From: Mobula hypostoma
Lineage: Eukaryota
NCBI RefSeq assembly: GCF_963921235.1
Contig: NC_086108.1
Location: 73,348,001-73,412,000 of the forward strand
Reading direction: 5' to 3'
DNA length: 64,000 bases
Positions 4,204-55,351 of this stretch are shown here, in pieces. The notes under the pieces were generated by a model, which worked only from the letters and a program-made list of their open reading frames with translations, searched no databases and was not told where the DNA came from. The translations under genes and the position numbers were made by a program. The number at the start of each line of letters is the position of its first letter. The first letter of the stretch is position 1.

Positions 4204-5870
4204 TAGTCATAGTCATAGTCATAGCCATACTTTACTGATCCCAGGGGGAAATTTTTTCGTTACAGTTGCACCATAAATAATAAATAGTCATAGAACCATA
4301 AATAGTTAAATAGTAATATGTAATTTATGCCAGTAAATTATGAAATAAGTCCAGGACCAGCCTATCGGCACAGAGTGTCTAACCCTGCAAAGGAGGAATT
4401 GTAAAGTTTGATGGCCACAGGCAGGAATGACTTCCTATGACGCTCTGTGCTGCATCTTGGAGGAATAAGTCTCTGGCTGAATGTACTCCTATGCCCTCCC
4501 AGTACATTATGTAGTGGATGGGAGACATTGACCAAGATGGCATGCAACTTAGACAGCATTCTCTTTTCAGACACCACCGTGAGAGCGTCCAGTTCCATCC
4601 CCACAACATCACTGGCCTTACAAATAAGTTTGTTGATTCTGTTGGTGTCTGCTACCCTCAGCCTGCTGCCCCAGCACACAACAGCAAACATGATAGCACT
4701 GGCCACCACAGACTCGTAGAACATCCTCAGCATCATCCGGCAGATGTTAAAGGACCTCAGTCTCCTCAGGAAATAGAGATGGCTCTGGCCCTTCTTGTAG
4801 ACAGCCTCAGTGTTCTTTGACCAGTCCAGTTTATTGTCAATTTGTATCCCCAGGTATTTGTAATCCTCCACCATGTCCACACTGACCCCCTGGATGGAAA
4901 CAGGGGTCACCAGTACCTTAGCTCTCCTCAGGTCTACCACTAGCTCCTTAGTCTTTTTCACATTAAGCTGCAGATAATTCTGCTCACACCATGTGACAAA
5001 GTTTCCTACTGTAGCCCTGTACTCAACCTCATCTCCCTTGCTGATGCATCCAACTATGGCAGAGTCATCTGAAAACTTCTGAAGATGACAAGACTCCGTG
5101 CAGTAGTTGAAATCCGAGGTGTAAATGGTGAAGAGAAAGGGAGACAAGACAGTCCCCTGTGGAGCCCCAGTGCTGCTGGTCACTCTGTCAGATACACAGT
5201 GTTGCAAGCACACGTACTGTGGTCTGCCAATCAGGTAATCAAGAATCCATGACACCAGGGGAGCATCCACCTACATCGCTGTCAGCTTCTCCCCCAGCAG
5301 AGCAGGGCGGATGGTGTTGAACGCACTGGAGAAGTCAAAAAACATGACCCTCACAGTGCTCGCTGGCTTGTCCAGGTGGGCGTAGACACGGTTCAGCAGG
5401 TAGACAATGGCATCCTCAACTCCTAGTCGGGGTTGGTAGGCGAACTGGAGGGGATCTAAGTGTGGCCTAACCATAGGCCGGAGCAGCTCCAGAACAAGTC
5501 TCTCCAGGGGCTTCATGATGTGGGAGGTCAATGCCACCGTTCTATAGTCATTGAGGCCGCTGGGGCGCGGTGTCTTTGGCACAGGGACGAGGCAGGACGT
5601 CTTCCACAGTACAGGAACTCTCCAGAGCCTCAGGCTCAGGTTGAATACATGGCGAAGTACTCCACATAGCTGAGGGGCACAGGCTTTGAGCACCCTGGTA
5701 CTGACACCATCTGGTCCTGCAGCCTTTCTTGGGTTGAGACGTTTCAGCTGTCTTCTCACCTGTTCAGCCGTGAAGCCCACCGTGGTGGTTTTGTGTGGGG
5801 GAGGGGTATAGTCAGGAAAGCAGGGTGGGGGACTGTGAGGAGGGGTAGGAGGGGAGAGTGGAACATGTGT
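4204..5870 (-). mobile_element. 5'-truncated Rex1/Babar-type LINE, nearly intact RT
   Basis: ORFs 5271-5969 and 4362-5270 are in one frame, split by a single TAG; motifs KAAGPDG, YRTVALTS, FFDFSSAFNTI, GAPQGTVLSPFLF, FSDD, YKYLG; 3' tail AGTAAA + (ACTATG)n at ~4204-4235. Confidence 0.9.
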
Positions 5871-5994
5871 AAGATGGCGTTTAATTCCTCTAACTATAGT
5901 GTTTGCTAAGTGTGCCCGCAGATAAAGAATCTCAGGGTTGTATCTGGTGACATATATGTACTCTGACAATAAATTTTACTTTGAACTTTGTACA

Positions 5995-9847: not shown

Positions 9848-11935
9848 AATAAGACCATTAGACAGAGGAGCAGAGTTAGGCCATTTGGCCCATCAAGTGT
9901 GCTCCACCATTCAATCATGGCTGATGCTATTTTTTCTCCTCCTCAACTTCATTTCCCAGTATTCTCATCACCTTTGATGCCATGTCCAATCAAGCACCTA
10001 TCAATCTCTGCCTTAAATACACCCAATGACCTGGCCTCTACAGCTGCACATGCCAACAAATTCGCCACTCTCTAGCTAAAGAAATTTCTCCACATCTCTG
10101 TTCTGAAAGGGTGCCCCTCTATCCTGAGGCTGTGCCCTCTTGTCCTAGACTCTCCCACCATGGGAAACATCTTTTCCACATCTACTTGGTCTAGGCCTTT
10201 CAACAATCAGAAGGTTTCATTGAGATCTCCCCTTATCCTTCTGAATTCCAGCGAGTACAGACCAAGAACCATCAAATGTTCCTCGTGTGATAACCCTTTC
10301 ATTCCTGGAATCATCCTTGTGAACCTCCTCTGGACCCTCGCTAATGCCAGCACATCTCTTCTAAGATGAGGGGCCCAAGACTGTACACAATACTCAAGGT
10401 GAGGCCTCACGAGTGCCTTATAAATCCTCAGCATCACATCCCTGCTCTTGTATTCTAGACCCCTTGCAGTGAATGCTAACATTGCATTTGCCTTCCTCAC
10501 CATAGACTCAACTTGCAAGTTAACCTTTAGGGTGTTCTACACAAGGATCCCCAAGTTCCTTTGCATCTCAGAGTTTTGATTTTCTCCCCATTTAGAAAAT
10601 AGTCCACACATTTATTTCTACTGCCAAAGTGGATGACCATGCATTTTCCAACATTGTATTTCATTTGCTACTTTCTTGCCCATTCTCCTAATCTGTCTAT
10701 GTCTTTCTGCTCCCTACCTGTTTCCTCAACACTACCAGCCCCTCCACCAATATTCGTATCATCTGCAAACTTGGTAACAAAGCCACCTATTTCATCATCT
10801 AAGTTATTTATATACATTTATATACAGCATAAAAAGAAGTGACCGCAACTCCAACCTCTGCAGAAGACCACTAGTCACTGGCAGCTAACCAGAAAAGCAT
10901 TATTTTATTCCCACTCGCTGCCTTCTTCCAATCAGCCAATGCTCTAACCATGTTAGTAACTTTCCTGTAATACCACTGGCTCTTAACTTAGTAAGCAGCC
11001 TCATGTGTGGCACCTTATCAAAGGCCTTCTGAAAGTCTAAATATACCACATCTATTGCATCCCCTTTATCCATCCTACTTATAATCTCCTCAAAGAATTC
11101 CAACAAGTTCATCAGGCAGGATTTTCCCTGAAGGAAACCATGCTGACTTTGTCCTATCTTGTCCTGTGTCACTAAGTACTCTATCACTTCGTCCTTAACA
11201 ATTGACTCCAAGGTCTTCCCAACCACTGAGGAGAGGCTAACTGTCATGGTCCCACCCGACAATGCCCCATCTTACTATTATCTCCTTGATTAGGTCTTAA
11301 TCCCCTCGTCTGATTTCCAATTGTTCCCAGTTTTCATTAATTACAGTACACCTGCTTTCCATCAGCGAACTGAGGATAAGAACCTTGGTGTCACTATCAT
11401 GCTTGACCAGTTCTTTGGACTATTCTAGTGTGTGTAAACCTCGTTTCCTGATTCCTTAGAACTGTCACTTCTAAGCTCCGCACCAATCCCTGGATAATCT
11501 TCGTAAACCTTCTCTCCGTGTAAAGATTCTCCTGAATACCTGTTCCACGTTCACGGCTGCGCTAACGCCTCACAACCCTGTCTCTGTGCCTGTGTCCTGC
11601 TCTTGGGTTCGTCCCCAGCCACATGCTTGCAACAGCTAACTGGTCTATAATTTCCTTTCTGTTGCCTTCTTCCTTTCTTAAAGAGTGGAGTGACATTTGC
11701 AATTTTCCAGTACTCTGGTACCATGCCAGAGTCCAATGATTTTTGGAAGAACATTGCTAACGCCACCACAATCTCTAACACTACCTCTTTCAGTACCCTA
11801 GGGTGCAGTTCATCTGGTCCGGGTGACTTATGTACTTGTAGGTCTTTCAGCTTTTCGAGCACCTTCTCTCTTGTAATATTAACTGCACTCACTTCTCTTC
11901 CTTCACACACTTCAACATCTGGCACACTGCTAGTG
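9848..11935 (-). mobile_element. 5'-truncated CR1 LINE, interrupted by a solo LTR
   Basis: KSPGPDELHPRVLKE, NYRPVS, QHGF..GKSCL, YLDFQKAFDKVPH, LVRPHLEYC; 3' tail at ~9848-9870. Confidence 0.92.
11242..11634 (+). mobile_element. Solo LTR (393 bp) inserted in CR1
   Basis: TGT...ACA termini; 6-bp TSD GCTAAC at 11236-11241 and 11635-11640; splits the host NYRPVS|LSSVVGK motif exactly; strand is tentative. Confidence 0.85.
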
Positions 11936-12634
11936 GAAATGTTTGGAAAAGAAGTCTACATTATTCTTATGTACCTACACATGGTGGTCCTGATATAACA
12001 TACTTTCTTAAATAAATTTCGCACCGACATAATTTAACTTTTCCTACAACTGGGAAAGTTGTTTCCGATTAGTGTCAATGTTGAGAATGTATCTCATGAA
12101 TCCTGAATGAGGAAAGAATTAGGTTTTATAATGATGTCCTGCAGAATATGAAATGCCCACCCAGCCCCAAAGTTGTGTTTTGTGCATTAGAAGTAGCCAA
12201 TAAAAATGCATCAGACAGCTTGCATCGTACAAGAAAACAAACTTCAGTGCTATCATTGTCCTCAGAGGGCAAGGAAAACATTTGGAATAAAAGATTGAGA
12301 GTTTTGGTGAATGTCAAGTAACAGAAGTGCAATTTGTCAACTAACACAAACAAGCTGAAGTAGCAGCAGTACTTGATGTTTGCTGCTCAGAACACATCTT
12401 AATTCTTTTTAAGGCTTCAACGGGCTTCGGTGGTAAACGGGAAGAGGCGAGAGCGAGGCACCAACTCTTTTTTTTCTTCCCTCTCCCCTTCGCGAATCGG
12501 CTCAGACAGGCAGGAGCAGCAGGGCTCTCACAGCTATCGGTACGAGCTAACGGTTTAAAAAGTTCATCTGTTTGGTGAGGTAAGTGGGTGAGTAGACTTA
12601 TTTTTCCTGTTTCATTCGTGTAGAATTAGATAGC

Positions 12635-13569
12635 ATGCCTGCAGGGTTAGTGCTTTGTTCAGGGTGTCAGAGGTGGGAATCCTGGGAGACCTCCAGCCTC
12701 CCTGATGGCCACATCTGCGCCAGGTGCACTGAGTTGCAGCTCCTCAGAGACCGTGTTAGGGATCTGGAGCTGCAGCTTGATGACCTACTGCTTATTAGGG
12801 AAAGTGAAGAGGTGATAGACAGGAGCTACAGGGAGGTAGTCATCCCTAGGCTACAGGGGTCAGAAAACTGGGTCACTGTCAAGAGAGGGAAGGGAAATGC
12901 CCGGATAGTGGAGAGCACCCCTGTGGCTGTCCCGTCAGCAACAAATATCTTGTTCTGGATGCTGTTGAGGGGGATGACCTGACAGGGGACGTCCACGGTG
13001 ACCGGGTCTTTGGCACTGAGCCTGGCGCTGTTGTGCAGGACAGAAGGAGGGAGAAGAGAAATGCGGTAGTCGTAGGGGATTCCATAGTCAGGGGAACGGA
13101 CAGGAAATTCTGTGAGCCTGATAGAGATACCCACATGGTGTATTGCCTCCCAGGTGCCAGGGTACGGGATGTCTCGGATCGGGTCCTGAATATTCTAAAG
13201 GGGGAGGGTGAGCAGCCAGTTGTCTTGGTACATATTGGTACCAATGACATAGATAGGACAAAGGAGGAGGTCCTGAAGAGAGATTTCCAGGAGTTAGGAA
13301 GGAAGCTGAGAAGCAGGACCTCCAGGGTAGTAATCTCAGGATTGCTACGTGTGCCAAGTGCTAGCGAGGGCAAGAATAGTAGGATCAGGCAGATGAATGC
13401 GTGGCTGAGAGACTGATGTAGGGGGCAGGGCTTCAGATTCTTGGATAATTGGGATCTCTTCTGGGGGAAGTATGACCTGTTCAAAAAGGACAGGTTACAC
13501 CTGAACCCGAAGGGGACCAATATCCTGGCGGGAAAGTTTAATAGAGCTGCTAGGGAGGGTTTAAACTAA
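12635..13569 (+). pseudogene. CR1 ORF1: CxxC..CxxC zinc finger, coiled coil, SGNH esterase (one frameshift ~12935, one premature TGA at 13414)
   Basis: CSGC...CARC, LRDRVRDLELQLDDL; esterase blocks VVGDS, LPGA, HIGTND, DRLHLN; ends GGT TTA AAC TAA. Confidence 0.9.
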
Positions 13570-16514
13570 TTTGGCAGGAGGATGGGAACCGGAATGACAG
13601 AGCGGAGGAAGGGGAAACCAGAAATAAATCTAAGATAGTGAGCAGTAAAGATGTCAGGAAAGACAGGCAGGTGATGGGGCAAATTTGTAGCCACTGGGAT
13701 GAGTTGCAGTGCAATAAAGTTGCAGTGAAATCAAAACAAAAAGTATCAAATACTGGTCTTAAGGTGTTGTACTTAAATGCACGCAGCATAAAGAGTAAGA
13801 TGGATGATCTTGTCGTACAGCTACAGATTGGCAGGTATGATATTGCGGCCATCACTGAGACCTGGCTAAAGGATGCACGTCTCTGGGAGCTGAACGTCCA
13901 AGGATACACGGTGTATCGGAAGGATAGGAAGGTAGGCAGAGGGGGAGGCGTGGCTTTATTGGTAAGAAATGATATTAAATCATTAGAAAGAGGTGATATA
14001 GGATTGGAAGGTGCAGAATCTTTATAGGTTGAGCTATGAAATTGCAGGGGTAAAAGGACCCTGATGGCAGTTATTTATAGGCCTCCAAACAGCTGCAGGG
14101 ATGTGGACTACAAATTACAACAGGAAATAGAAAAGGCTTGTCAGAAGGGCAGTGTTATGATAATTGTGGGGGATTTTAACTTGCGAGTGGATTGAGAAAA
14201 TCAGGTCGGCACTGGATCTCAAGAGAGAGAATTTGTAGAATGTCTGCAAGATGGCTTTTTAGAACAGCTTGTTGTTGAGCCCACTAGGGGATCGGCTGTA
14301 CTGGATTGGGAATTGTGTAATGAACCGGAGGTGGTTAGAGAAATTGAGGTGAAGGAACCCTTAGGAGGCAGTGATCATAACATGATTGAATTCACTGTGA
14401 AATTTGAAAAAGAGAAGCTGAAATCTGATGTGTCGGTATTCCAGTGGAGTAAAGGAAATTACAGTGGCATGAGAGAGAAACTGGCTGAAGTTGACTGGAA
14501 AGGGACACTGGCGGGCAAGACAGCAGAGCAGCAGTGGCTGGAGTTTATGCAAGAAATGAGGAAGGTGCAAGACAGGTATATTCCCAAAAAGAAGAAATTT
14601 TCGAGTGGAAAAAGGATGCAACCATGGTTGACAAGAGAAGTCAAAGCCAAAGTTAAAGCAAAGGAGAGGGCATACAAGGAAGCAAAAATTATTGGGAAGA
14701 CAGAGGATTGGGAAGTTTTTAGAACCTTACAAAAGGAAACCAAGAAGATCATTAAGAGGGAAAAGATTAACTATGAAAGGAAGATGGCAAATAATATCAA
14801 AGAGGATACTGAAAGCTTTTTCAAGTATATAAAGAGTAAAAGACAGGTGAGAGTAGATATAGGACCGATAGAAAATGATGCTGGAGAAATTGTAATGGGA
14901 GATAAGGAGATGGCAGAGGAACTGAACGAGTATTTTGCATCAGTCTTCACTGAGGAAGACATCAGCAGTATACCGGACACTCAAGGGTGGCAGGGAAGAG
15001 AAGCGTGCACAGTCACAATTACAACAGAGGAAGTACTCAGGAAGCTGAATAGTCTAAAGGTCGATAAATCTCCTGGACCAGATGGAATGCACCCTCGTGT
15101 TCTGAAGGAAGTAGCTGTGGAGATTGCGGAGGCATTAGCGATGATCTTTCAAAAGTCGATAGATTCTGGTATGGTTCCGGAGGACTGGAAGAGTGCAAAT
15201 GTCACTCCACTATTTAAGAAGGGGGCAAGGAAGCACAAAGGAAATTATAGACCTGTTAGCTTGACATCGGTGGTTGGGAAGTTGTTGGAGTTGATTGTCA
15301 AGGATGGGGTTACAGAGTACCTGGAGACATATGACAAGATAGGCAGAACTCAGCATGGATTCCTTAAAGGAAAATCCTGCCTGACAAACCTATTACAATT
15401 TTTTGAGGAAATTACCAGTAGGCTAGACAAGGGAGATGCAGTGGATGTTGTATATTTGGATTTTCAGAAGGCCTTTGACAAGGTGCCACACATGAGGCTA
15501 TTTAACAAGATAAGACCCCATGGAATTATGGAAAAGTTACATACATGGATAGAGCGTTGGCTGATTGGCAGGAAACAGAGAGTGGGAATAAAGGGATCTT
15601 ATTCTGGTTGGCTGCTGGTTACCAGTGGTGTTCCACAGGAGTCCGTGTTGGGGCCGCTTCTTTTTACATTGTACATCAACGATTTGGATTATGGAATGGA
15701 TGGCTTTGTGGCTAAGTTTGCTGACGATACGAAGATAGGTGGAGGGGCCGGTAGTGCTGAGGAAACGGAGAGTCTGCAGAGAGACTTGGATAGATTGGAA
15801 GAATGGGCAGAGAAGTGGCAAATGAAGTATAATGTTGGAATGTGTATGGTTATGCACTTTGGCAGAAAAAATAAATGGGCAGACTATTATTTAAATAGGG
15901 AAAGAATTCAAAGTTCTGAGATGCAACCGGACTTGGGAGTCCTCGTACAGGATACCCTTAAAGTTAACCTCCAGGTTGAGTCAGTAGTGAAGAAGGCGAA
16001 TGCAATGTTGGCATTCATTTCTAGAGGAATAGAGTATAGGAGCAGGGATGTGATGTTGAGGCTCTATAAGGTGCTGGTGAGACCTCACTTGGTGTACTGT
16101 GGGCAGTTTTGGTCTCCTTATTTAAGAAAAGATGTACTCACGTTGGAGAGGGTACAGAGAAGATTCACTAGAATGATTCCGGGAATGAGAGGGTTAACAT
16201 ATGAGGAACATTTGTCCGCTCTTAGACTGTATTCCTTGGAGTTTAGAAGAATGAGGGGAGACCTCATAGAAACATTTTGAATGTTGAAAGGCATGGACAG
16301 AGTGGATGTGGCAAAGTTGTTTCCCATGATGGGGGAGTCTAATACGAGAGGGCATGACTTAAGGATTGAAGGGCACCCATTCAGAACAGAAATGCGAAGA
16401 GATTTTTTTAGTCAGAGGGTGGTGAATCTATGGAATTTGTTGCCACGGGCAGCAGTGGAGGCCAAGTCATTGGGTATATTTAAGGCAGAGATTGATAGGT
16501 ATCTGAGTAGCTAG
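13560..16514 (+). pseudogene. CR1 ORF2: APE endonuclease + reverse transcriptase (several premature stops)
   Basis: YLNARSI, ITETWL, GGGVALLV, GSDHN, KSPGPDG, YLDFQKAFDKV, KFADDTK; stops at ~14025, ~14037, ~14193 and 16278. Confidence 0.95.
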
Positions 16515-17419
16515 GGCATCAAAGGTTATGGTGAGAAGGCGGGGGAGTGGGACTAAATGGGAGAATGGATCAGCTCATGATAAAATGGCGGAGCAGACTC
16601 GATGTGTCGAACGGCCGACTTCTGCTCCTTTGTCTTATGGTCTTATGGTCTTTTAATTTTCCTTCTTGGGTTTAGTGATAAGTTGGTATTTCATGACATT
16701 GAGGGTTTATACAGGGAGAAATGATATCTTCCATTCCTTATTGCTGATACTACATCCCATTTATTTTTCTGAAGCCAATAGGGTCAAGTGCTAACAGTTG
16801 GTTGGCAGAGCATTAAATCCAAAGATATTTAAAATATTGGTTCACTTTGTGGTTCGTTGTACTAAGGTCCCCTCGATCTTTTAGCTTCCAGTAATTGATC
16901 AATGGGGGTTTCTATCTCCATGAATTCACCACAGTGCTTTAATATTGTTCACTTTCTAATATATGAATAGGATACATAATATCAAGTCCACCCAAGCACT
17001 AAAAATTCTTTAACATGAGGTTCAAGAGGATTCACCACTCTGCAATGGACACCATGCAGCATCCTATGAATTAGAAAATGTGTTGCCATGCTCTGAGCCA
17101 GATTCATGTACAAACCTTGTGATAATAATCTTCTCCAGCCCCCCCCCCCCAGAGAGGAAGGGAGGAAGGGAGGGCAAATCAAGGGAGAGCACTAGAGAAA
17201 AGATGACAGGGAAGAAATGATCAGAGGTCATGGAGAACGCAAGGAGTGAGGGGAAGAGAGTTGATCTTGGGGTAATTTGTGGGTTAGGGAGAGAACCATG
17301 GCATGTTCAAAGGAAGATTGAAGTAAGTGAACTTTAATAGATTTGAATATTTATACAGTCTGAAAACATGCCCTTCAACTCAACTTGTTGATGCCTGTTA
17401 GAGATTATTGACGAGTTAC

Positions 17420-17974: not shown

Positions 17975-20930
17975 ATTGAATTGAATTGAATTGACTTTAT
18001 TTCTTACATCCTTCACATACATGGGGACTAAACTTGTTTACACTTCATCTCCACCTAAATGCGCAATGTACAATCATAGTAATTTATAATAATTTATATT
18101 CAATAGAACAGTGTAATATAGAGTACACTCAAATCAGTATGAGTTCATCAGTCTGATGGCCTAGTGGAAAAAGCTGTCCCAGAGACAATTGGTCCTGGTT
18201 GATACCATCCAGGTATCGCTTCCTGGATGGTAGCAGCTGGAATAGATTGTAGTTGGGTCCCCAATGATCCTACGAGCCCTTTTTACACACCCGTCCTTGT
18301 AAATGTCCTGAATAATGGGAAGTTCACAACTACAGATGCACTGGACTGTCCGCACCACTCTCTGCAGAATCCTGCGATTAAGGGATGTACAGTTCTCATA
18401 CCAGACAGTGATGCAGCCAGTCAGGATGCTCTCATTTGTGTCCCTGTGGAAGGTTTTAAGGATCTGGGGGCCTTCCTCAACCGTCTGAGATGAAAGAGGT
18501 GCTTTTGTGCATTTTTCACCACACAGCTGGTGTGTACAGACCACGTGAGGTCCTCAGTGATGTGGATGCCAAGGAACTTAAAGCTGTTTACCCTCTCAAC
18601 CCCAGATCCATTGATGTATTGATGTCAATAGGGGTTAGCCTGTCTCCATTCTTTCTGTAATCCACAACCACCTCCTTTGTTTTTGCGATATTGAGGGAGA
18701 GGTTGTTTTCTTGACACCACTGTGTCAGAGAGGTGACTTCTTCCCTGTAGGCCACCTCATTATTGTTTGAGATAAGGCCAATCAATGTAGTGTTGTCAGC
18801 AAATTTAACTGGCAGATTGGAGCTGTGGGTGGCGATACAGTCATGGGTATACAGGGAGTAAAGGAGAGGACTAAGTAGACATTCCTGTGGGGCTCCTGTA
18901 CTGAGAGTCAGAGGGTTGGAGGTGAGGGAACCCACTCTTACAGCCTGCTGACGATCTGACAGGAAGTCCAGGATCCAGCTGCACAAGGCAGGGTGAAGGC
19001 CGAGGTCTCTGAGCTTCCTTTCGAGCCTAGATGGAATTATGGTGTTGAATGCTGAACTGTAGTCCAAGAACAGCATTCTCACATAAGGATCCTTCTTCTC
19101 CAGATGTGTAAGGACAGTATGTAGAGCAGTGGCTATTGCGTCGTCTGTCAATCAGTTGTGTCAGTAGGTGAATTGTGAGGGGTCCAGTGTGGGTGGTAGC
19201 AAGCTGCAGATGTAATCCTTGACCAGCCTCTCAAAGCATGTGCTTATTATTGAGGTGAGTGCGACAGGACGTCAGTCGTTCAGGCATGTTACCGTGGTCT
19301 TTTTTGGTACAGGGAAAATAGTGGATAATTTGAAACAGAAGGGCACTCTACACTGGGAGAGGGAGAGATTAAAAACGTCTGTAAACACACCTGCCAGTTG
19401 TGCTGCACGCATCCTAAGTATTCGCCCTGGGATGCTGTCCGGTCCCGCAGTCCTGCGACTGTCCACTCATTGGAAACATCTGTGTACCTCAGCCTCAGAG
19501 ATGAACAGGTTGCAGGTTGTAGCGGTGGCTTTCCTCGGAGGCTCAGAGTTAGCGACATCGAACCGAGCGTAAAAGCATTTGAGCTCATCTGGGAGAGAGG
19601 CCGCAATGTTGGAGGCACCACAACGTTTGGCTTTGAAGCCTGTGCTGGTATGCAGCCCTCGCCACAAGTCACATGTGCTATTCGTTGTGAACCTTGACTC
19701 AATCTTCTCCCTATATTGTTGTTTCGGAGTCTTTGATAGGTTTGCGCAAATCGTAGCTGCTTTTCTTGAGCTCTTGTTGAGCTCCAGCGATGTAAGCTTG
19801 ATGTGACGCTGTAAGTGCTGCTCGCCCGGAACTATTAATCCAGGGTTTCTGTTTGGGAAACCCTGACCGACTTCTGGGGGACAACATCGTCGATGCACTT
19901 CCAGATGAAGCACGTGACTCCATCAGTGAACTTGGAGATATCCTCATCATGGAAGACTTTCCAGTCGACATCATCGAAGCAGTCCTGCAGCATGGAGGCC
20001 GATTGGTCAGACCAACAGTGGACAGTTTTAACTATGGCTGCCTCTTGTTTCAGCTTCTGCTTGTACATCAAGAGAAGCAGGATCAAAGAGTGGTCTGATT
20101 TTCCAAAAGCTGGATGGATCAGCGCTTTGTAAGCATTACGAAAGGCAGTGTAACAGTGGTCGAGGTGGTATCTCCACGAGTGCTCACCTGGATGTGCTGA
20201 CAAAACTTCGGAGAGACTTTCGTCAGCGACACTCGGTTAAGGTCATTGGTGACGATGAAGACAGCCTCTGGGTGTGCAGTCTCCAGCTTGATGATGGTCT
20301 CATATAGTTCCTTGAGAGCCAGGTCAGTATCAGCCTGTGGCAGAATGTACACCGCTGTGATGATAACAGCCGTGAGCTCCCTAGGCAGCCAGTAGGGTCT
20401 GCACAGCAGCACCAGATATTCCAAGTCTGGGGAACAAAAGGATTTGAGTGCATGCACATTCTGGGGATTGCACCAAGCATTGTTGACCATGAAGCACATC
20501 CCTCCTGCTTTACTCTTCCCAGAGAGGATTTTCAACCTGTCTGCCTGGAGCAGAGAGAACCCAGAGGGCTCGATGGCGTGATCCCGTATCTCCTCTCAGC
20601 CACGTCTCCACAAAGCACAAAACACTGCATTCCTTTGTTCCCCGCTGATTCTGGCTCTCAGTTCACAAAGCTTCTTATCCAGGGACTGAATGTTAGCCAG
20701 GAGTTTGCTAGGGAGTGGCAGTCGATTTGCATGCCGTCTCAGCCCCCCCAGGACGTTGGCCCTTCTCCCTCGCCTCCGGCACTTCTTCCGAGGCAGTGGC
20801 AGTGTGAGAGGTGAGCCACCCATGGATTGCACAAGCAGGGGATCTCAGTGTAGGAAAGCAGCCACATAGTGGGTAAATGCTGTCTTTCCGATGTTCAGAA
20901 GGGTCAGTCTATCATACCTGATGTGACTAT
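17975..20930 (-). mobile_element. Near full-length, degraded Rex/Babar LINE (APE + RT)
   Basis: [76 protein letters not shown]; (TTCAA)n tail at ~17975-17995. Confidence 0.9.
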
Positions 20931-21914: not shown

Positions 21915-23743
21915 AGAGTGGTGTTTAAGAGGGGAGACTGAGATGGTAGGATTGAGGAAAAGATTTTCAATTATGTGAAGAAAAAAAGGATGACAGGAGT
22001 GAAGGTAGGACTGATTAGAGATAAAGGTGGGAGGATGTGCCTGGAGGCTGTGGAAGTGAGCGAGGTCCTCAATGAATACTCTCTTTGGTATTCACCAATG
22101 AGAGGGAACTTGATGACGGTGAGGACAATATGAGTGAGGTTGATGTTCTGGAGCATGTTGATATTAAGGGAGAGGAGGTGTTGGAGTTGTTAAAATACAT
22201 TAGGACAGATAAGTCCCCAGGGCCTGACGGAATATTCCCCAGGCTGCTCCACGAGGTGAGAGAAGAGATTACTGAGCCTCTGGCTAGGATCTTTATGTCC
22301 TCGTTGTCCACAGGAATGGTACCGGAGGATTGGAGGGAGGCGAATGTTGTCCCCTTGTTCAAAAAAGTTAGTAGGGATAGTCCGGGTGATGATAGACCAG
22401 TGAGCCTTACATCTGTGGTGGGAAAGCTGTTGGAAAAGATTCCTAGAGATAGGGTCTATGGCATTTAGAGAATCATGGTCTGATCAGGGACAGTCAGCAT
22501 GGCTTTGTGAAGGGCAGATCATGTCTAGCAAGCCTGATAGAGTTCTTTGAGGAGGTGACCAGGCATATAGATGAGGGTAGTGCAGTGGATGTGATCTATA
22601 TGGATTTTAGTAAGGCATTTGACAAGGTTCCACATGGTAGGCTTATTTAGAAGGCATAGGATCCAGGGAAGTTTGGACAGGTGGATTCAGAATTGGCTTG
22701 CCTGCAGAAGGCAGAGGGTCGTGGTGGAGGGAGTACATTCGGATTGGAGGATTGTGACTAGTGGTGTCCCACAAGGATCTGTTCTGGGACCTCTACTTTT
22801 CGTGATTTTTATTAACAACTTGGATGTGGGGGAAGAAGGCTGGGTTGGCAAGTTTGCAGACGACACAAAGGTTGCTGGTGTTGTAGATAGTGTAGAGGAT
22901 TGTCGAAGACTGCAGAGAGACATTGACAGGATGCAGAAGTGGGCTGAGAAGTGGCAGATGGAGTTCAACCCAGAGAAGTGTGAGGTGGTGCACTTTGGAA
23001 GGACAAACTCCAAGGCAGGGTACAAAGTAAATGGCAGGATACTTGGTAGTATGGAGGAGCAGAGGGATCTGGGGGTACATGTCCACAGATCCCTGAAAGT
23101 TGCCTCACAGGTAGATAGGGTAGTTAAGAAAGCTTATGGGGGGTTAGCTTTCATAGGTCGAGGGATAGAGTTTAAGAGTTGCGATGTAATGATGCAGCTC
23201 TATAAAACTCTGGTTAGGCCACACTAGGAGTACTGTGTCCAGTTCTGGTCGTCTCACTATAGGAAGGATGTGGAAGCATCAGAAAGGGCACAGAGGAGAT
23301 TTACCAGGATGCTGCCTGGTTTAGAGAGTATGCATTATGATCAGAGATTAAGGGCTAGGGCTTTACTCTTTGGAAAGAAGGAGGATGAGAGGAGACATGA
23401 TAGAGGTGTACAAAGTAATAAGAGGAATAGATAGAGTGGATAGTCAGCGCCTCTTCCCCAGGGCACCACTGAGGACATGGCTTTAAAATAAGGGGTGGGA
23501 AGTTCAAGGGGGATATTAGAGGACGGTTTTTTACTCAGAGAGTGTTTGATGCATGGAATGCACTGCCTGAGTCAGTGGTGGAAGCAGATACACTAGTGAA
23601 GTTTAAGAGACTACTAGACAGGTGTATGGAGGAATTTAAAGGTTGGGGGGTTATATGGGAGGCAGGGTTTGAGGGTCAGCACAACATTGTGGGCCGAAGG
23701 GCCTGTACTGTACTGTATTATTCTATGTTCTATGTTCTATGTT
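21915..23743 (+). mobile_element. 5'-truncated CR1 LINE, second subfamily with (TTCTATG)n tail
   Basis: KSPGPDGIFPRLL, SGVPQGSVLGPLLF, KFADDTK, LVRPH; tail TTCTATGTTCTATGTTCTATG at 23721-23741. Confidence 0.92.
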
Positions 23744-25224: not shown

Positions 25225-27641
25225 GTAAGTTGTATTTAGACCCCAAAAGGGTAGTAAGTAGGTGGTCGATAAATTACAACGGGAGATAGAAAATACATGC
25301 CAAAAGGGTGATGTTACAATAGTCATGGGGGACTTCAACATGCATGTAGATTGGGAAAATCAGATTGTTGCTGGATTACAGGAGGGGGAATTTCTAGAAC
25401 GTCTACAAGATGGCTTTTTAGAGCAGCTTGTGCTTCAACCCATTAGAGGATTCTGGATTGAATGTTGTGCAATGAACCAGAATTGATTAGAGAGCTTAAG
25501 GTAAAAGAACCATTAGGGCAAATGATCATAATATGATCGAATTTTCCCTGAAGTTTGAGAAGGAGAAGCTAAAGTCAAATGTTTCAATATTACAGTGGAG
25601 TAAAGGCAATTACAGAGGCATAAGAGAGGAGTTGGCCAGAATTGATTGGAAAAGAAAACTGCCAGGGATGACGGCAGTGCAGCAATGGCTGGAATTTCTG
25701 GAAGCAATTCAGAAGCCACTGGATATATACATCTGAACGAGGAAGAAGTCGTCTAAAGACAAGATGACACAACCATGGCTAACAGGGACAGTCAAAACCA
25801 ACATAAAAGCCAAAGGGAGAGCGTATGATAGAGCAAAAATTAGTGAAAGCTAGAGGATTGAGAAGCAACAGAAGCCAACTAAAAAAGACATTAAGAAGGT
25901 AAACATGAAACACAAAAGTAAGCTAGGCAATAATATTAAAGAGGATACAAAAAGTTTCTTCAGATACATAAAGTGTAAAACAGAGGCAAGAGTGGATATT
26001 GGACCACTGGAAAACGATGCTGGGGAGGTAGTAATGGGGACAAGGAAATGCAAGATGGACTGAATAAGTATTTTGCATCAGCCTTCACTATGGAAGACAC
26101 TAGCAGTATGGTGGAAGTTTACAGGTGTCGGAGTCAAGAAGGGTGTGGTTACCATTACTATAGAGAAGTTTCTTGGGAGACTGAAAGGTCTGATGGTAGA
26201 TAAGTCACCTGCACCAGAGTGTGTACAACCCATTGTTCTGAAAGAGGTGGCTGAAGAGATTAGGGAGGCATTAGTAATGATCTTTCAAGAATCACTAGAT
26301 CCTGAATAGTTGCGAAAGACTGTAAAATTGCAAATGTCACTCCACTCTTCGAGAAGGGAAAGAGACAGAAGAAAGAAAACTATTGGCCGTTTAGTCTGAC
26401 CTCAGTGGTTGGGAAGATGTTGGAATCAATTATTAAGGATGATGTCTCAGGGTACTTGGAGGCACTTGATAAAATAGGCCTTAGACAAGCTGCCACACAT
26501 GAGGCTGATTAACAAGCTACAAGCCCATGGTATTACAGGGAAGATTCGAGCATGGATAAAGCAGTGGCTGATTGACAGAAGGTAAAGAGTGGGAACCAAG
26601 GGAGTATTTTCTGGCTGGCTGCCAGTGACTAGTAGTGTTCCCAAGGGGTCTGTGTTGGGATTAAATTTTTTTACATTATATGTCAATGATTTGGATGTTG
26701 GAATTGACGGCTTTGTTCCAAAGTTTGCAGATGAAATGAAGCTAGGTGGAGGGGCAGGTAGTATTAACAAAGTAAAGATGCTACAGAATGACTTAGGAGA
26801 ATGGGCAAAGAAGTGGCAGATGGAATACAGTGTCAGGAAATATATGGTCATGCAGTTTGATAGAAGGAGTGAAAGTTTGACTATTTTCTACATGGAGAGA
26901 AAATACAAAAAACTGAGGTGCGAAAGGACTTGGGAGTCCTTATGCAGGATTCACTGAAGGTTAATTTGGAGGTTGAGTTTGTAGTGAGGAAGGAAAATGC
27001 AGTGCTAGCATTGCATTTCAAGAGGAGTAGAATATAAAAGCAAGGCTGTAATGTTGAGATTTTAGAAAGCACTGGTGAGACCTCACTTTGAGTTTTGTGA
27101 GCACTTTTGGGCCCCTTATCTTCAAACGGGCATGCTGAAACTGGAGAGGTTTAAAGGAGGTTCATGAAAATTTTTCCAGGATTGAATGGCTTGTCATATG
27201 AAGAGTGTTTGATTGTTCTGGGCTTGTGTTCACTAGAGTTCAGAAGAATGAAGGTTGACTTCATTGAAACCTATCAAAAGGTGAAAGGTCTTGATAGAGT
27301 GGATGTGGAGAAGATGTTTCCTGTGGTGGGAGAGTTTAAGATCAGAGGACACAGACTCAGAATAGAGGGGAGTCCTTTAAGAACGGAAATTAGGAGGAAT
27401 TTCTTCCACCAGATAGTGGTGAATCTGTGGAATTCTTTGCCACTGGCAGCAGTGGAAACCAAACCTTATGTATATTTAAGGCTGATGTTGCTAGATTCTT
27501 GATTGGTCAGAGCCTGAAGGAATACGGGAGATGGCAGGAAATTGGGGCTGAGAGGAAAATTGAATCAGCCATGATAAAATGACAGAGCAGACCCGATGGG
27601 CCAAATGGCCTAATTCTGTTCCTATATCTTTTGGTCTTATA
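25225..27641 (+). mobile_element. Degraded CR1 (partial APE + RT, internal deletion ~26478)
   Basis: VMGDFNMH, MIEFSLKFEKE, SSVPKGSVLG, KFADE; tail TCTTTTGGTCTTAT. Confidence 0.9.
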
Positions 27642-36107: not shown

Positions 36108-37316
36108 ACAGGTAGTGTTGAGGAAACAGGTAGGAAGCAATAAGACTTAGACAGATTAGGAGAATGAGCAAGAAAGCGGCAAATGAAATATAATGTTAGA
36201 AAATGCATGGTCATGCACTTTGGGAGTAGAAATAAATGTGTGGACTATTTTCTAAGTGGCGTGTGGCCAAGTGGTTAAGGCATTGGACTAGCGATCTGAA
36301 GGTTGTGAGTTTGAGCCCCAGCCGAGGCAGTGTGTTGTGCAAGGCACTTAACCACACACTGCTCGAGTCCATCCAGCTGAAAATGGGTACCGGCAAAATT
36401 CTGGGAGTTAACCTCGCGATAGATTGGCGTCCTATCCGGAGGTGGGAGGGGAGAGTCTCGTACTCTCAGTCGCTTCACGCCACGGAAACCGACATAAGCA
36501 CCAGCCTGATTCGCCTATAAAGCTCGGGACAGACTTTAACTAGCTAACCATTTTCTAAGCGGGGAGAAAATCCAAAAATCTGAGATGCAAAGGGACTTAG
36601 GAATCTTGGTGCAGAATACCCTAAAAGTTAACTTGCAGGTTGAGTCGGTGGCAAGGAAGGCAAATGCCACGTTAGCATTCATTTCAAGAGGTCTAGAATA
36701 CAAGAGCAAGGATGTGATGCTGAAGCTTTATAAGACACTGGTGAGGCCTCACCTTGAGTATTGTGAACAGTTTTGGGCCCCTCATCTTAGAAAAGATGTG
36801 CTGGCATTGGAGAGGGTCCAGAGGAGGTTCACAAGGATGATTCCAGGAATGAAAGGGTTATCATATGAGGAACGTTTGATGACTCTGGGTCTGTACTCAC
36901 TGGAATTCAGAAAGATGAGGGGAGATCTCAATGAAACCTTTCGAATATTGAAAGGCCTAGACAGAGTAGATGTGGAAAGGATGTTTCCCATGGTGGGAGA
37001 GTCCAGGAAAAGAGGACACAGCCTCAGGATAGAGGGGCGCCCTTTTGAAAACAGAGATGCAAAGAAATTTCTTTAGCTAAAGGGTGGTGAATTTGTGGAA
37101 TTTGTTGCCACCTGCAGCTGTGGAGGCCAGGTCGTTGGGTGTATTTAAGGCAGAGATTGATAGGGTCTTGATTGGACATGACATCAAAGGTTACGGGGAG
37201 AAGGTTATATACTGGGGTTAAGGAGGGGAAAAAAGGACCAGCCATGATTGAATGGTGGAGCTGACTTGATGGGCCAGATGGCCTAATTCTGCTCCTATGT
37301 CTTATGGTTTGTGGTC
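36108..37316 (+). mobile_element. 5'-truncated CR1 nested in CR1
   Basis: QRDLGILV, LVRPHLEYCEQFW; tail TCTTATGG; candidate TSD TACAT (36103-36107, 37317-37321). Confidence 0.88.
36257..36549 (+). mobile_element. tRNA-derived SINE inserted in CR1
   Basis: A-box TGGCCAAGTGG, degenerate B-box GAGTTTGAGCCC; TSD ATTTTCTAAG at 36247-36256 and 36550-36559. Confidence 0.9.
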
Positions 37317-49334: not shown

Positions 49335-52300
49335 ACTGCTAGAGCTGCTGGGAGTGGTTTAAGCTAACACAGCACAGAAATGGGAACCAGTATGATAGAG
49401 CTGAGGATGAGCTGGCAGGTGATGTAATATGTAATATGAATGTAAGGAAGGGCAAGCCAATGATTGGGTACAACTGCAGACAGAGCGAAGAGTTAATTTC
49501 TACCAGAGAGGTAAAATTCATAAGTTCAAATTATACAGGTGTGAAGGTGTTGTATTTAAATACACGTAGCATTCAGAATAAGGTGGACAAACTCGTGGCG
49601 CAATTAGAGATTGGTCGGTATGACATTGTGGGCATCGCTGAGTCGTGGCTGAAAGAAGGTCATAGTTGGGAGTGTAACATCAAAGGATAAACATTTCAAA
49701 AGGTCAGGCAGGAAGGTATAGGTGATGGTGTGGCTCTGTTGGTAAGATATGGAATTACTTCTTTAGAAAGAGGTGACATAAAGTCAGAGAATGTTGAATC
49801 TTTGTGGGTGGAGTTAAGAAATTGCAAGGGTAAAAAAAAACGATTATACATAGGCCTCCAAGAAGTAGCCAAACGTGGGGTCGAGATTGCAAAGGGAGCT
49901 GGAAAGGGCATGGAATAAGGGTAATGTCACAAGTGTAATGGGGGACTACAATATGCAAGGGGATTGGGAAAATCAGGTTGGTGATGGATCACAAGAGAGG
50001 GAATTTGTTGAATGTCTATGAGATGGTTTTTTAGAGCACCTTGTGCTCAAGCCTACTAGGGGAAAAGGATGTTTTAGATTAGGTGTTGTGTAATAACCCA
50101 GATTTTATTAGTCAGTTTAACATAAAGGAACCCTTAGGAGACTGTGATCATAATATAATTGAATTCATACTGCAATTCGAGAGGGAGAAGCATAACTCAC
50201 ATGTATCAGGGTTGCAATGGAATAAAGGGAATTACAGAGGCATGAGAAAGGAGCTTGCCGAGGTGGATTGGAGGAGGAATCTGGCAGGGATAACGGCAGA
50301 ACAGAGATAGCTGAAGTTTCTGGGAATAGTTCGCAAGACGCAGGAGTTGTTCAAATAATAGCAGGGGTAGACCATCATGGCTGACAAGGGGAGTTAAGGA
50401 CTGCATCAAAGCCAAGGAAAGGACATATGTGGTAGCAAAAGTGTGTGGCAAATTGGATGACTGGGAAGCTTTTAAAATGCAACAAAAGGCAACTGAAGAA
50501 GCTACAAGAAGGGAAAAAGGATGAAATATGAGGGCAAACTAGCTGATAATATAAAGCAGGACACTAGAAGGTTTTTCAGTTATATAAAGAATAAAAGGGA
50601 AGTGCGAGTTGATATTGGACCACTGGAAAACGTCGCTGTGAGGTAGTAATGGGGGACAAAAAAATGGCAGATGAACCTAATCAACACTTTGTTTCAGTTT
50701 TCACTGTGGAAGCCAGTAACAGTATGCCAGAGGTGCATGAGTGTCAGGGAGCTGGAGTGAGCGCCGCTGTTATTACTAAGGAAAAAGTGCCAGGCAAACT
50801 CAAAGGTCTTAGGGTGGATAAGTCACCTGGGCCAGATGGACGACAATGCAGAATCCTGAAAGAGGTTGCTGAAGAGATAATGGATGTATTGGTCATGATC
50901 TTTCAAAAATCACAATTCTGGCATGGTCCCAGAGGAATGGAAAACTGCAAATGTCACTCCACTCTTTAAGGAGGAAGGAAGACAAATGAGAGGAAATTAT
51001 AGGCCAGTTAGCCTAACCTCAGTGGTTGGGAAAGTGTTGGAGTCCATTATTAAGGATGAAGCTTTGGGGTACTTGGAGATTAATGATAAAATAAGTCAAA
51101 ATCAGCATGATTTCTGTCAAGGGAAACCTTGCCTGACAAATCTGTTAGAATTCTTCAAGGAAGTAAGAAGCAGGGTGGACAAAGGAGTGGCAGTGGGCGT
51201 CATTTACTTAGATTTTCAGTAGACATTTGATAAGGTGCCTTGCATGAGGCTGCTTAACAAGATAAAATCCTGAGGTGTTACAGGAAATATACTGGCCCGG
51301 ATAGAGGAATGGCTTACAGGCAGGAGGGAGCTAAAGGAAATAAAGGGGGCCTTATTTGGTTGGCAGCCAGTGACTACTGGTGTTCCTCAGTGGCCAGTAT
51401 TGAGACTGCTACTTTTCACATTGTTTGTCAATGATTTACATTTGTAGATAGCGGAATTGATGGTTTTGTGGCAAAGTTTGCGGATGATACGAAGATAGGT
51501 GGAGCGCTAAGTAGTACTGAGGAAGTAAAGCAAGTGCAGCAGGACTTAGACAAATTGGAGGAATGGGGCAAAAAAGTGACAGATAGAATATAAAGTCAGG
51601 AAATGTATGATAATGCATTTTGATAAAAGGAATAATAGTGCGGACTATTATCCAAGTGGGGAAAAAAATCAAATATCAGAGGTGTAAAGGGATTTAGGAG
51701 TCCTTGTGCAAGCTTCCCTGAAGGTTAATTTACAGGTTGAACCTGTGGTAAAGAAGGCAAATGCAATGTCACCATTTATTTCAACGGGAATAGAATATAA
51801 AATCATGCTGAAGGAAATAATGCTGAAGCTTTATATGACACTTGTCAGGCCACACTTGTGGTATTGTCAACCGTTTTGAGCCCCTTATCTCAGAAAAGAT
51901 ATATTGTCATTGGAGAGAGTCCAGTGGAGGTTCATGAGGATGATTCCTGAAATGAAGGGGTTAATATATGAGGGCATGTGGCAGATTTGGGCCTGTACTC
52001 ACTGGAATTTAGACGAATGCATGGGGATCTCATTGAAACGTACCAAATGTTGAAAGGACAAGGATAAGCTGGATGTGCACAGGATATTTCCTCTGGTGGG
52101 TGTATCCAAAACTAGAGGGTACAGCATCAAGATTGAGGGGTTAACTTATAGAACAGAGGTAAGTAGGAATCTGTTTTAGGCAGTGAATGGTGAATCTGTG
52201 GAATGCTCTGCCAGACTGCGGTAGAGGACAAGTCCATGGGTATATTGAAAGTGGAAGTTGATAGATTCCTGATTGGTCAGGCCATCGAGGGAAATGGTAA

Positions 52301-52563: not shown

Positions 52564-54724
52564 ACAAACACAAGGAAATCTGCAGATGCTGGAAATTCAA
52601 GCAACACACTCAAAATGTTGGTGGCACATAGCAGGCCAGGCAGCATCTCTAGGAAGAGGTACAGTTGACACTTCGGGCCGAGACCCTTCATCAGGACTAA
52701 CTGAAAGAAGAGATAGTAAGAGATTTGAAAGTGGGAGAGGGAGGGGGAGATCTGAAATGATAGGAGAAGACAGGAGGGGGAGGGATGGAACGAAGAGCTG
52801 GTAATTTGATTGGCAAAAGGGATACAAGGCTGGAGAAGGGGAGGATCATGGGACGGGAGGCCTAGGGAGAAAGAAAGGGGGAGGGGAGCACCAGAGGAAG
52901 ATATAGTGAGAGGGACAGAGGGAGAAAAAAGAGAGAGTAAGAAAGGGGGAGAAAATAATAAATAAATAAATAAATAAATAAATAAGGGATGGGGTAAGGA
53001 GGGGAGGAGGGGCATTAACGTAATTTAGAGAAGTCAATGTTCATGCCATCAGTTTGGAAGCTACCCAGATGGAATATAAGGTCTTATTCCTCCAACCTGA
53101 GTGTGGCTCCATCTTGACAGTAGAGGAGGCCATGGGTGGACATATCAGAATGGGAATGGGACATGGAATTAGAATCTGTGGGCACTGGGAGACCCTGCAT
53201 TCTCTGGTGGACAGGGCGTAGGTGTTCAGCGAAACGGTCTCCCAATCTGCGTCGGGTCTCTCCAATATATAGAAGGCCGCACCGGGAGCACTAGACGCAG
53301 TGTATCACATCAGCCAACTCACAGGTTAAGTGTCGCCTCACCTGGAAGGACTGTCTGGGGCCCTGAATGGTGGTGAGGGAAGAAGTGTAAGGGCATGTGT
53401 AGCACTTGTTCTAATTACAAGGATAAGTGCCAGGAGGGAGATCGGCAGTAAGGGATGAGGGGGACAAATGGACAAGGGAGTCGCGTAGGGAGCGATCCCT
53501 GTGGAAAGCAGAGGGGGGAAGGGAAAGATGTGCTTAGTGGTGGGTTCCCGTTGGAGGTGGTGGAAGTTACGTTGGACCAGGAGGCCGGTGGGGTGGTAGG
53601 TGAGGACAAGGGGAACCCTACCCCTAGTGGGGTGGCGGGAGGATGGGGTGAGAGCAGATGTGTGTGAAATGGGAGGGATGCGTTTGAGAGCAGAGTTGAT
53701 GGTGGAGGAAGAGAAGCCCCTTTCTTTAAAAAAGGAAGACATCTCCTTCGTCCTTGAATGAAAAGCCTCATCCTGAGAGCAGATGTGGCAGAAATGGAGG
53801 AATTGCAAGAAGGGGATGGCATTTTTGTAAGAGATAGGGTGGGAAGAGGAATAGCCCAGGTAGCTGTGAGAGTCCGTAGGCTTATAGTAGACATCAGTAG
53901 ATAAGCTGTGTCCAGAGATAGACAGAAAGATCAAGAAAGGGGAGGGAGGTGTCGGAAATGGACCAGGTAAATTTGAGGGCAGGGTGAAAGTTGGAGGCAA
54001 AGTTGATGAAGTCAATGAGCTCAGCATGCATGCAGGAAGCAGCGCCAATGCAGTCGTCAATGTAGCGAAGGAAAAGTGGGGGACGGATACCAGCGTAGGC
54101 TTGGAACATGGATTAGCCCATGGCTATACCTTTAGTTTGGAGAAAGTGGGAGGAGCCAAAGTAGAAATTATCAAGAGTAAAGACTAATTCTGCTAGACAG
54201 AGGAGAGTGGTGGTAGAGGGAAACTGGTTAGGTCTTGAATCCAAAAAGAAGCGGAGAGCTTTGAGACCTGCCTGGTGACCTCCAACCTGATGGCATGAAC
54301 ATTGACTTCTCTAACTTCCGTTAATGCCCCTCCTCCCCTTCTTACTCCATCCCTTATTTATTTATTTATTATTTTTTTCTCCCCCTGTCTTTCTCTCTCT
54401 TTTTTCTCCCTCTGTCCCTCTCACTATATCTTCCTCTGGTGCTCCCCTCCCCCTTTCTCCCTAGGCCTCCCATCCCATGATCCTCTCCCTTCTCCAGCCT
54501 TGTATCCCTTTTGCCAATCAACTGTCCAGCTCTTAGCTCCATCCCTCCCCCTCCTGCCTTCTCCTATCATTTCGGATCTCCCCCTCCCCCTCCCACTTTC
54601 AAAACTCCTACTATCTCTTCTTTCAGTTAGTCCTGACGAAGGGTCTCGGCCCGAAACATTGACTGTACCTCTTCCTATAGATGCTGCCTGGCCTGCTGCG
54701 TTCCACCAGCATTTTGCTTGTGTT
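52564..54724 (-). mobile_element. 5'-truncated Penelope-like element (RT + GIY-YIG) with inverted pLTR
   Basis: LRYIDD, HPALKFT, LPFLD, YYKPTDSHSYL, CGLLYIGETRRRLGDRFAEH; ~450-bp inverted repeat 52603-53060 / 54279-54724; candidate TSD ACAAT(A/G)AATAAAC at 52551-52563 and 54725-54737. Confidence 0.92.
54629..54664 (+). ncRNA. Hammerhead ribozyme motif in the pLTR
   Basis: AGUC CUGACGA A GGGU-CUCG-GCCC GAAA C AUU GACU; the inverted partner at 52663-52698 has GAAA>GAAG. Confidence 0.65.
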
Positions 54725-55351
54725 ACAATGAATAAACCCTGTTTATTCATTTCCAGGCCAAACCCATTTATTGCTCACCTCTAATTTCCTTTAGCCACTT
54801 TCTTGAATCAGTGTGGTCCACTGTTAGTGTGCAGGGCTCTCCAGAATTCTGATCCAACAATTTTAAAGCTAGTGTGTACCATTTACTCTTAGTGGATTGT
54901 CATGTCCCAAGGTATTTCACAGGAATTTGAACAAATAAAAATTTAACAATTTTATTTAAAGTGATGTCAAAACAGGAAACAAAAGATATAATAAATACAT
55001 TGAGTGTTGAAATTACCTCATTTGATCCATGTATATCATAGACTTTCCAGCCATCCTGGTGCATATCCTTTTAAAGTTTGCAAGATATTTTACTGAACAA
55101 ATTCTGTAAATCCACATAAGATCATAAGCCAAAGGAGCAGAATTGGGCTATTTGCCCCATCAAGTCTTCTCCAACATTCAATCATGGCTGATTTATTTTC
55201 CCTCTCAACCCCATTCTTCTGCCGTCTCTCAGTACCTTTAACACCTTCACTAAACAAGAAACTGTCAACCTCCACTTTAAAGATACCCAATGGCTTGGCT
55301 TTCATAGCATTCTGTGGTAATGAATCCCACAGAGTCACCACACTGTGGCTA

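Follow-up and report, generated by a model that had tools for sequence, protein, structure and literature searches.

How long interspersed elements (LINEs) translate the second open reading frame (ORF2) of their bicistronic RNA is described as unclear in the relevant passages of PMC3708506, in which reinitiation is shown for SART1 and ORF1 is argued to be, of necessity, a product separate from ORF2. Programmed -1 ribosomal frameshifting of the viral kind, as at the U_UUA_AAC site of coronaviruses and in retroviral gag-pol, relies on an X_XXY_YYZ heptamer that lies where a structural ORF ends; the polymerase ORF occupies the -1 frame and lacks a fixed start codon (PMC3542737, PMC5009743). Frameshifting has already been proposed in retroelements without long terminal repeats: in Penelope-like elements a frameshift accompanied by a pseudoknot can set ORF1 apart (PMC8557442, Fig. 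1 legend), and a gag frameshift of Drosophila HeT-A is in print (PMC5009743). Unlike the junction described below, these elements, as presented in those sources, are not LINEs with an apurinic/apyrimidinic endonuclease (APE) and a reverse transcriptase (RT), and they have a pseudoknot or a shift inside gag rather than a heptamer, a stop codon and a run of five G (G5). In the chicken genome no interspersed repeat is more abundant than CR1 (PMC11835228). Here we describe the ORF1/ORF2 junction of a CR1-type LINE in a 64,000-nt stretch of the Mobula hypostoma genome (contig NC_086108.1, positions 73,348,001 to 73,412,000 of the forward strand; hereafter the window, whose first letter is position 1) and in its relatives. 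The element shares its ORF1 architecture and APE-RT ORF2 with CR1 subgroup 7, whose ORF1 is of type IVB (leucine zipper, zinc finger, esterase; PMC4120745).

The two ORFs of this element meet at a slippery heptamer, T_TTA_AAC (13560 to 13566, plus strand), in X_XXY_YYZ phase. ORF1 ends in G-L-N (GAG GGT TTA AAC TAA, 13555 to 13569), its stop codon (13567 to 13569; TAA here, TAG or TGA in relatives) follows immediately 3' of the heptamer, and the -1 frame reads F-K-L. We consider it probable that programmed -1 ribosomal frameshifting accounts for at least part of ORF2 expression in esterase-type CR1 LINEs, giving an ORF1-ORF2 fusion. Most ribosomes would terminate at the codon directly after T_TTA_AAC and release the ORF1 protein (ORF1p), and a minority would slip back one base on UUA_AAC by tandem slippage and continue with F-K-L, so that an ORF1-linker-endonuclease-RT fusion would be made at low frequency, as with gag-pol. 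Such a fusion had been proposed from the window copy in the initial annotation, whose junction coordinates proved exact, and comparative evidence (conservation, phase, an open -1 frame and AUG placement) now supports it. The -1 frame stays free of stops over 13554-14024, between TAG at 13551 to 13553 and TAG at 14025, and runs into the start of the endonuclease as annotated. Since it opens two codons ahead of the heptamer without a start codon, translation there requires a shift. The closeness of that upstream stop, to which the initial annotation had drawn attention, is incidental: the -1 frame is open for 1 to 37 codons upstream in other junctions, and the TAG is missing in 18% of depth among the contigs of run X1 (see below). 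A single copy is weak evidence in any case, because the window contains 19 instances of TTTAAAC, and canonical X_XXY_YYZ heptamers of any kind are met at 0.0043 per position. A second, older copy reads GGT TTA AGC TAA at the homologous place (49356 to 49367, plus strand), as had been annotated; its heptamer is broken and its G-run lost.

Relatives were collected by scanning metagenomes with an internal ORF1 pattern, V[CV]CLPGA[RK][VI], and not with the heptamer, which yielded 44 loci. According to tblastn, 20 of these reach the ORF1 C-terminus and 24 do not; L009 was regained through its endonuclease, and L001, L011 and L017 were dropped because their sequence stops at or before the junction. 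The junction set therefore comprised 18 loci and the two window copies (n = 20). The junction signal is much wider than one copy: TTTAAAC is exact in 17 of the 20 homologous junctions, the exceptions being L010 (TTTAAAT, still canonical), L014 (decayed) and the second window copy (TTTAAGC). In the exact junctions the heptamer columns are conserved in 17 of 17, and upstream columns are mostly 30-80% conserved. The junctions form approximately five groups with 39-58% upstream nucleotide identity between groups. Most loci are nearest to named turtle or snake ORF1s, the named proteins closest to the window ORF1 are from rays and sharks, and L003, L004, L010 and L024 form a distant group; between L004 and the others, ORF2 identity is 36-42%. 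Among the sequences of PMC4120745 the esterase ORF1 was confined to vertebrates, whereas the junction found here also occurs in that distant group, whatever its host. The long ORF2 frame is always -1 from the heptamer, with 403, 828, 632, 796, 438 and 835 codons open, the first two lengths being those of L003 and L004.

Codon choice offers a control for protein constraint. In seven loci, a single codon is kept at 2 of 47 invariant degenerate residues of the ORF2 endonuclease versus 3 of 3 at F-K-L. Going by codon usage, NNT-TTA-AAC has a per-locus chance of 0.004-0.016 in five loci and of 0.13-0.22 in L003 and L004, values that cannot simply be multiplied because the seven loci represent only three groups. 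Residues F1, K2 and L3 of the -1 frame are invariant in 7 of 7 loci and Gly7 in 6 of 7 (Glu in the window copy), and the remaining linker, 40 to 91 codons up to a NARS motif, is unalignable between groups. If both frames constrain the bases of F-K-L, the -1 frame is translated there. The phased TTTAAAC is thus kept beyond amino-acid constraint, the comparison by which the initial annotation had suggested that its proposal be checked.

The placement of AUG codons bears on how ORF2 could start. In the window copy the -1 frame linker between shift site and endonuclease occupies 13570 to 13775 (plus strand). The in-frame ATG at 13674 (codon 39), which had been raised as a possible independent start of ORF2, does exist, and its position is not conserved: the first in-frame AUG is codon 23 in L015 and codon 59 in L003 and L004. 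In the latter two loci, both of them intact and distant from the window copy, NARS stands at codon 45, so that the AUG comes after its Asn. By profile search this Asn (13776 to 13778 in the window, plus strand) aligns to Asn14 of the L1 endonuclease, a water-coordinating catalytic-site residue that matches Asn68 of APE1 in the part of PMC8565326 concerned. An ORF2 initiated at the first AUG of L003 or L004 would therefore be without its catalytic-site Asn, and these two elements have no usable AUG.

Past the heptamer the junctions share a further order, namely stop codon, seven variable bases and GGGGG. The G5 run starts 10 nt after the heptamer (13577 to 13581 in the window, plus strand) and is a candidate stimulator. 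Counted from the first base of the heptamer, positions 18 to 22 are G in 15/16, 16/16, 15/16, 15/15 and 15/15 junctions. At least four of the five are G in all 15 scorable exact-heptamer junctions and in none of 51 other TTTAAAC occurrences in the same sequences; the latter is the informative number, because the motif was read off these same junctions. G5 covers the last base of codon 6, a GGG glycine codon and the first base of codon 8. The amino acid of codon 6 varies (Q, K, L, R or S), and GGG accounts for 22-38% of Gly codons elsewhere in the loci. The 22-nt motif was found in exact form in 12 of 45 loci, one copy in each, and in the window once with one mismatch (0.02 expected). The window copy has GGAGG, and its family has GGGGG, because position 13579 is G in 95% of depth in run X1. 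The G-rich tract, mentioned at first merely as a caveat, is present and is more than that, being conserved at a fixed distance.

Variation within the window family adds modest support from sequence for the heptamer. In run X1, 14,999 contigs were aligned to 13380-13800 at a likeness of at least 80%. Among 40 of the 61 variants, each with at least ~9% of depth, 20 positions vary in 13417-13552 and none in 13553-13573, and weaker variants in the latter interval are possible among the remaining 21. For these 40, the variant-free 21 nt correspond to p ~0.035, and the heptamer and stop alone to p 0.2. All four T>C variants are among those 40, and none lies inside the heptamer. No indel of at least 4% was found over the junction in the run X1 contigs.

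The junction passes every available sequence test of viral -1 frameshifting bar downstream structure. Unlike the viral sites, it resides in an APE-type LINE, and it has an immediate stop and G5 after 10 nt in place of a stem-loop or pseudoknot 5-9 nt downstream; for this reason it is not classed as a canonical structure-stimulated site, although it may still function like one. The initial annotation had seen no clear stimulatory hairpin, and none emerged here from local folds or from the consensus fold, pseudoknots not being explicitly modelled; Rfam gave no match at the junction. The stimulus would thus not be a local hairpin or pseudoknot, and the candidates are the adjacent stop and the unstructured G5 run, which probably binds a protein or contacts the ribosome. 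That a G-quadruplex forms in all junctions is doubtful, because beyond a single G6 run L003 and L004 offer only two GG, both distant. Sites of somewhat similar geometry are described in sections of the review PMC5009743. The protein-stimulated arterivirus -2 site (nsp1beta plus PCBP) and cardiovirus sites have spacers of 11-14 nt, versus 5-9 for RNA structures, and pea enation mosaic virus needs a stop codon 3 nt from its shift site. The likeness, a stimulator beyond 5-9 nt or a stop nearby, would be one of geometry only; unlike the arterivirus and cardiovirus sites, the CR1 motif is G-rich, starts after 10 nt and comes without a known trans-acting protein.

The signal may also be followed through ORF1 protein ends. 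Among close hits, 37 of 56 retain the esterase end, and 36 of these 37 end in xLN. From a distant set of 142 representatives, 86 had a D-x-x-H block and a tail of 20-45 residues; 41 of these end in LN, 10 in GN, 2 in KN, 4 in other xN, 3 in FFx and 26 otherwise. The final residue is thus Asn in 57 of the 86 distant esterase ORF1s, against a background of 4.6%. The residue before LN is pyrimidine-only in 15 cases and purine-only in 1, and that before GN in 0 and 9, respectively (Fisher 5e-6, inflated by kinship). Ends in xLN, QGN and SKN make up the pattern that would be expected of T_TTA_AAC, G_GGA_AAC and A_AAA_AAC; DNA was obtained for xLN alone, so that the GN and KN part is an inference from protein ends. 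These three heptamers are listed among the shiftiest in PMC5009743. The tail from D-x-x-H to LN varies in length from 25 to 39 residues. In an 88-row esterase tree from which the tails were excluded, LN, GN and KN ends are interleaved within one well-supported clade of 24 rows, and an 11-row clade with named ray-finned-fish proteins, which we take to be the ZfL2-like group, has no end signature. Some of the distant GN- or KN-type ORF1s may belong to RTEX or Penelope elements. Scans of viral contigs gave no relatives. In prokaryote genome contigs the QGN group had no match, and a further scan yielded a single 506-nt fragment that lacks the junction.

Other ORF1s of this collection deserve separate mention. 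P0330, P0390, P0400 and P0405 form a separate esterase clade with x-K-N 26-28 residues from D-x-x-H, at the place of the LN or GN ends of other ORF1s, followed by 7-11 residues, possibly A_AAA_AAC with a longer overlap. Within the QGN clade, the ORF1s of P0310, P0326, P0342, P0325 and P0385 end in FFH, FFR, GFR or GFLGRV, ends that are compatible with U-rich or G_GGU_UUU heptamers. A distant family ending in SKHSLN (P0045 and P0059) forms clusters with 204 and 620 members, located on long contigs, which suggests a very recent burst of an esterase-bearing element. CR1-type esterase ORF1s in Pseudomonas aeruginosa and Providencia alcalifaciens records (P0140 and L045:56-337) lie on very short contigs and are likely vertebrate contamination. 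Some CR1 ORF1s (P0139, P0003 and P0411) are publicly annotated under the names of host genes to which they are unrelated: 40S ribosomal protein S24 isoform, WD repeat protein 87 and prefoldin subunit 5.

The foremost alternative is termination-reinitiation as in SART1 and L1, in which the heptamer and G-run would retain the ribosome for a restart at a nearby AUG or near-cognate codon. This route has been shown for SART1, with which, as with L1, the CR1s would share a bicistronic LINE RNA and an ORF2 made at low level. An in-frame AUG at codon 4-5 in 6 of the 17 junctions (L005, L006, L009, L016, L032 and L037) suits it: in five of these the AUG lies 2 nt past the stop (codon 5), and L032 has an overlapping TAATG. 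L003 and L004 offer near-cognate CTG, GTG or ACG codons ahead of NARS. SART1, as described in passages of PMC10275272 and PMC3708506, has an overlapping UAAUG and downstream structure, whereas the CR1s have a phased slippery site and no conserved start; an AUG at or overlapping the ORF1 stop is limited to those six junctions, and the downstream RNA structure required for reinitiation of the SART1 type was not found. The first AUG is codon 4, 5, 23, 39 or 59, and L003 lacks an AUG in all three frames over a stretch that begins 30 nt ahead of the stop and reaches ~60 nt past it. In the window family, linker codons 13-17 (DRAEE, versus DRAED in the second copy) differ at third positions only, upstream of the first in-frame AUG. 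Reinitiation, moreover, predicts neither the X_XXY_YYZ phase nor the constant -1 position of ORF2 nor the switch among LN, GN and KN endings, and we regard it as unlikely to be the general explanation, although in some amniote-type subfamilies reinitiation at an AUG at codon 4-5 may operate alongside frameshifting.

Explanations outside translation fare worse. G-runs and TTTAAA-like hexamers can function in RNA processing, and the motif might then be a signal at the RNA-processing or DNA level (a weak poly(A) hexamer with a downstream G-run, a splice acceptor or an internal promoter), with ORF2 made from a separate RNA; the failure to find a stimulator structure would fit. However, the motif is tied to codon phase and to the -1 ORF2, GN and KN endings would abolish TTTAAA, and the stop differs among junctions (TAG, TAA or TGA) with no fixed AG acceptor, so that a splice acceptor in particular is rejected and the explanation as a whole is very unlikely. 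Slippage of the polymerase in transcription, adding or removing a base at the motif so that a minority of RNAs would be in frame, would give the same fusion product and make RNA structure unnecessary. It is more improbable still, given that the runs in TTTAAAC are only 3 bases long and that the run X1 contigs, which are DNA and drop rare variants, hold no indel at the threshold given above. Finally, a C-terminal Leu-Asn required by the protein, together with chance codon choice, would need no signal at all. L and N are (nearly) invariant at the ORF1 end in vertebrate-type alignments and TTA is common in L003 and L004, but synonymous sites elsewhere are saturated, the tail ahead of LN is far from constant in length and the G-run requires a separate explanation; we give this reading hardly any credence. 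Two other routes through the junction were tried and discarded. For stop read-through, the 0 frame closes within 1-40 codons in the 11 intact junctions, and for a +1 or -2 shift the frame has a TAA inside the heptamer.

Several observations nevertheless weigh against frameshifting, the early AUGs of six junctions and the near-cognate codons of L003 and L004 among them. A heptamer without a stimulator normally shifts poorly, as stated in part of PMC3542737, and local folds of the junctions were no better than shuffles (z -2.6 to +1.6 in 10 loci), their consensus fold was empty and no long-range partner common to them was found, the 3' untranslated region (UTR) being covered in the window copy only. 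The heptamer is lost in L014 and in the second copy of the window, and the lineages are related, so that probabilities are not fully independent. Among the distant proteins, the 26 of 86 without an end signature count on the same side, as does the absence of DNA for QGN and SKN families from the scans of viral and prokaryote genome contigs. A natural in-frame fusion was not found in weak searches for longer proteins.

A more far-reaching proposal can be put forward only tentatively, and we would sooner expect it to fail than to hold. The heptamer, stop, 7 nt and G5 may constitute an ancient structure-free -1 cassette of animal esterase retroelements, in which the heptamer has switched among U_UUA_AAC, G_GGA_AAC and A_AAA_AAC and the G5 run is a stimulator of a new kind. 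G5 might then be a site for a host G-run-binding protein or for ORF1p, a ribosome contact or a natural G-quadruplex, and the fusion might tether RT to a membrane-binding esterase particle, as in gag-pol.

The element that carries the window junction is a near full-length CR1-type LINE (~12.4-16.65 kb, plus strand) with an esterase ORF1. ORF1 (12635 to 13569, plus strand, ATG at 12635) encodes a CX2CX16CX2C zinc-finger-like motif, a leucine-rich coil and an SGNH/GDSL esterase, with Pfam matches to PF13472 (E 3e-7, just below the curated cut-off) and PF17182 (E 2e-6). The G-D-S, G-x-N and D-x-x-H blocks of the esterase are present, the last as DRLH (13489 to 13500, plus strand), 26 codons ahead of the ORF1 stop. 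The ORF2 frame (13560 to 16556, plus strand) has the Pfam domains PF03372 (APE endonuclease) and PF00078 (RT, ~15228-15857). A profile search matched the endonuclease to the L1 and TRAS1 endonuclease structures, and a PDB search with L004 as a single sequence gave no match. Compared with sequences from the collected loci and the window, the window ORF2 is ~42% identical to those of L004, L006, L009 and L016 and 28-29% identical to other LINEs in the window. The 3' end (16590 to 16648, plus strand) consists of a hairpin with arms at 16590-16597 and 16621-16628 and a tail of (TCTTATGG)2. A 3' hairpin with a short tandem-repeat tail is typical of CR1. This copy is dead and unable to use its shift site, because ORF1 is disrupted by a frameshift near 12935 and by the TGA of 13414-13416, and five premature stops interrupt ORF2 (14025, 14037, 14193, 16278 and 16512).

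Upstream of ORF1, the 5' UTR of the element (12440-12635) contains a T-rich pyrimidine tract, and a donor-like site, GTGAGGTAAGT, lies ~55 nt upstream of the ORF1 ATG. Elsewhere in the window, pieces of another LINE type were seen at 4362-5975, 18161-20595 and 55097-55663, two of which carry RT parts ~28% identical to the CR1 ORF2. CR1-like ORF2 pieces that are 5'-truncated and without a junction lie at 10900-11955, 22076-23227, 25229-26957, 36540-37076, 56285-56662 and 62255-62635. Decayed ORFs at 53338-54123 on the minus strand have a peptide style that we presume to be that of Penelope-like RT C-termini.

Full-text literature searches, whose scope did not extend to the first descriptions of CR1 in chicken and turtle, to Kapitonov and Jurka 2003 or to the Repbase notes, brought up no account of frameshifting at this junction. 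Neither "frameshift" nor "overlap" occurs in the main text of PMC4120745, "CR1" is absent from the available text of the frameshifting review PMC5009743, and "frameshift" is absent from the available texts on CR1 ORF1 or recoding. In our judgement there is a real if lesser chance that one of these primary CR1 sources comments on the overlap or proposes a shift. A conserved CR1 frameshift, if true, would contradict the view, argued in the passages of PMC3708506 cited above, that ORF1 must be a separate product, and the fusion route would probably differ from the stop-and-restart reported for other LINEs. The 22-nt signal lends itself to direct testing with standard reporters. Should the G5 run prove to be the stimulator, it would represent a natural G-rich one; natural G-quadruplex stimulators were anticipated but unknown in the relevant section of the 2016 review (PMC5009743). 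For the CR1 family itself, frameshifting, if true, would shift the annotated start of ORF2 and extend the range of cellular -1 frameshift sites by a large class.

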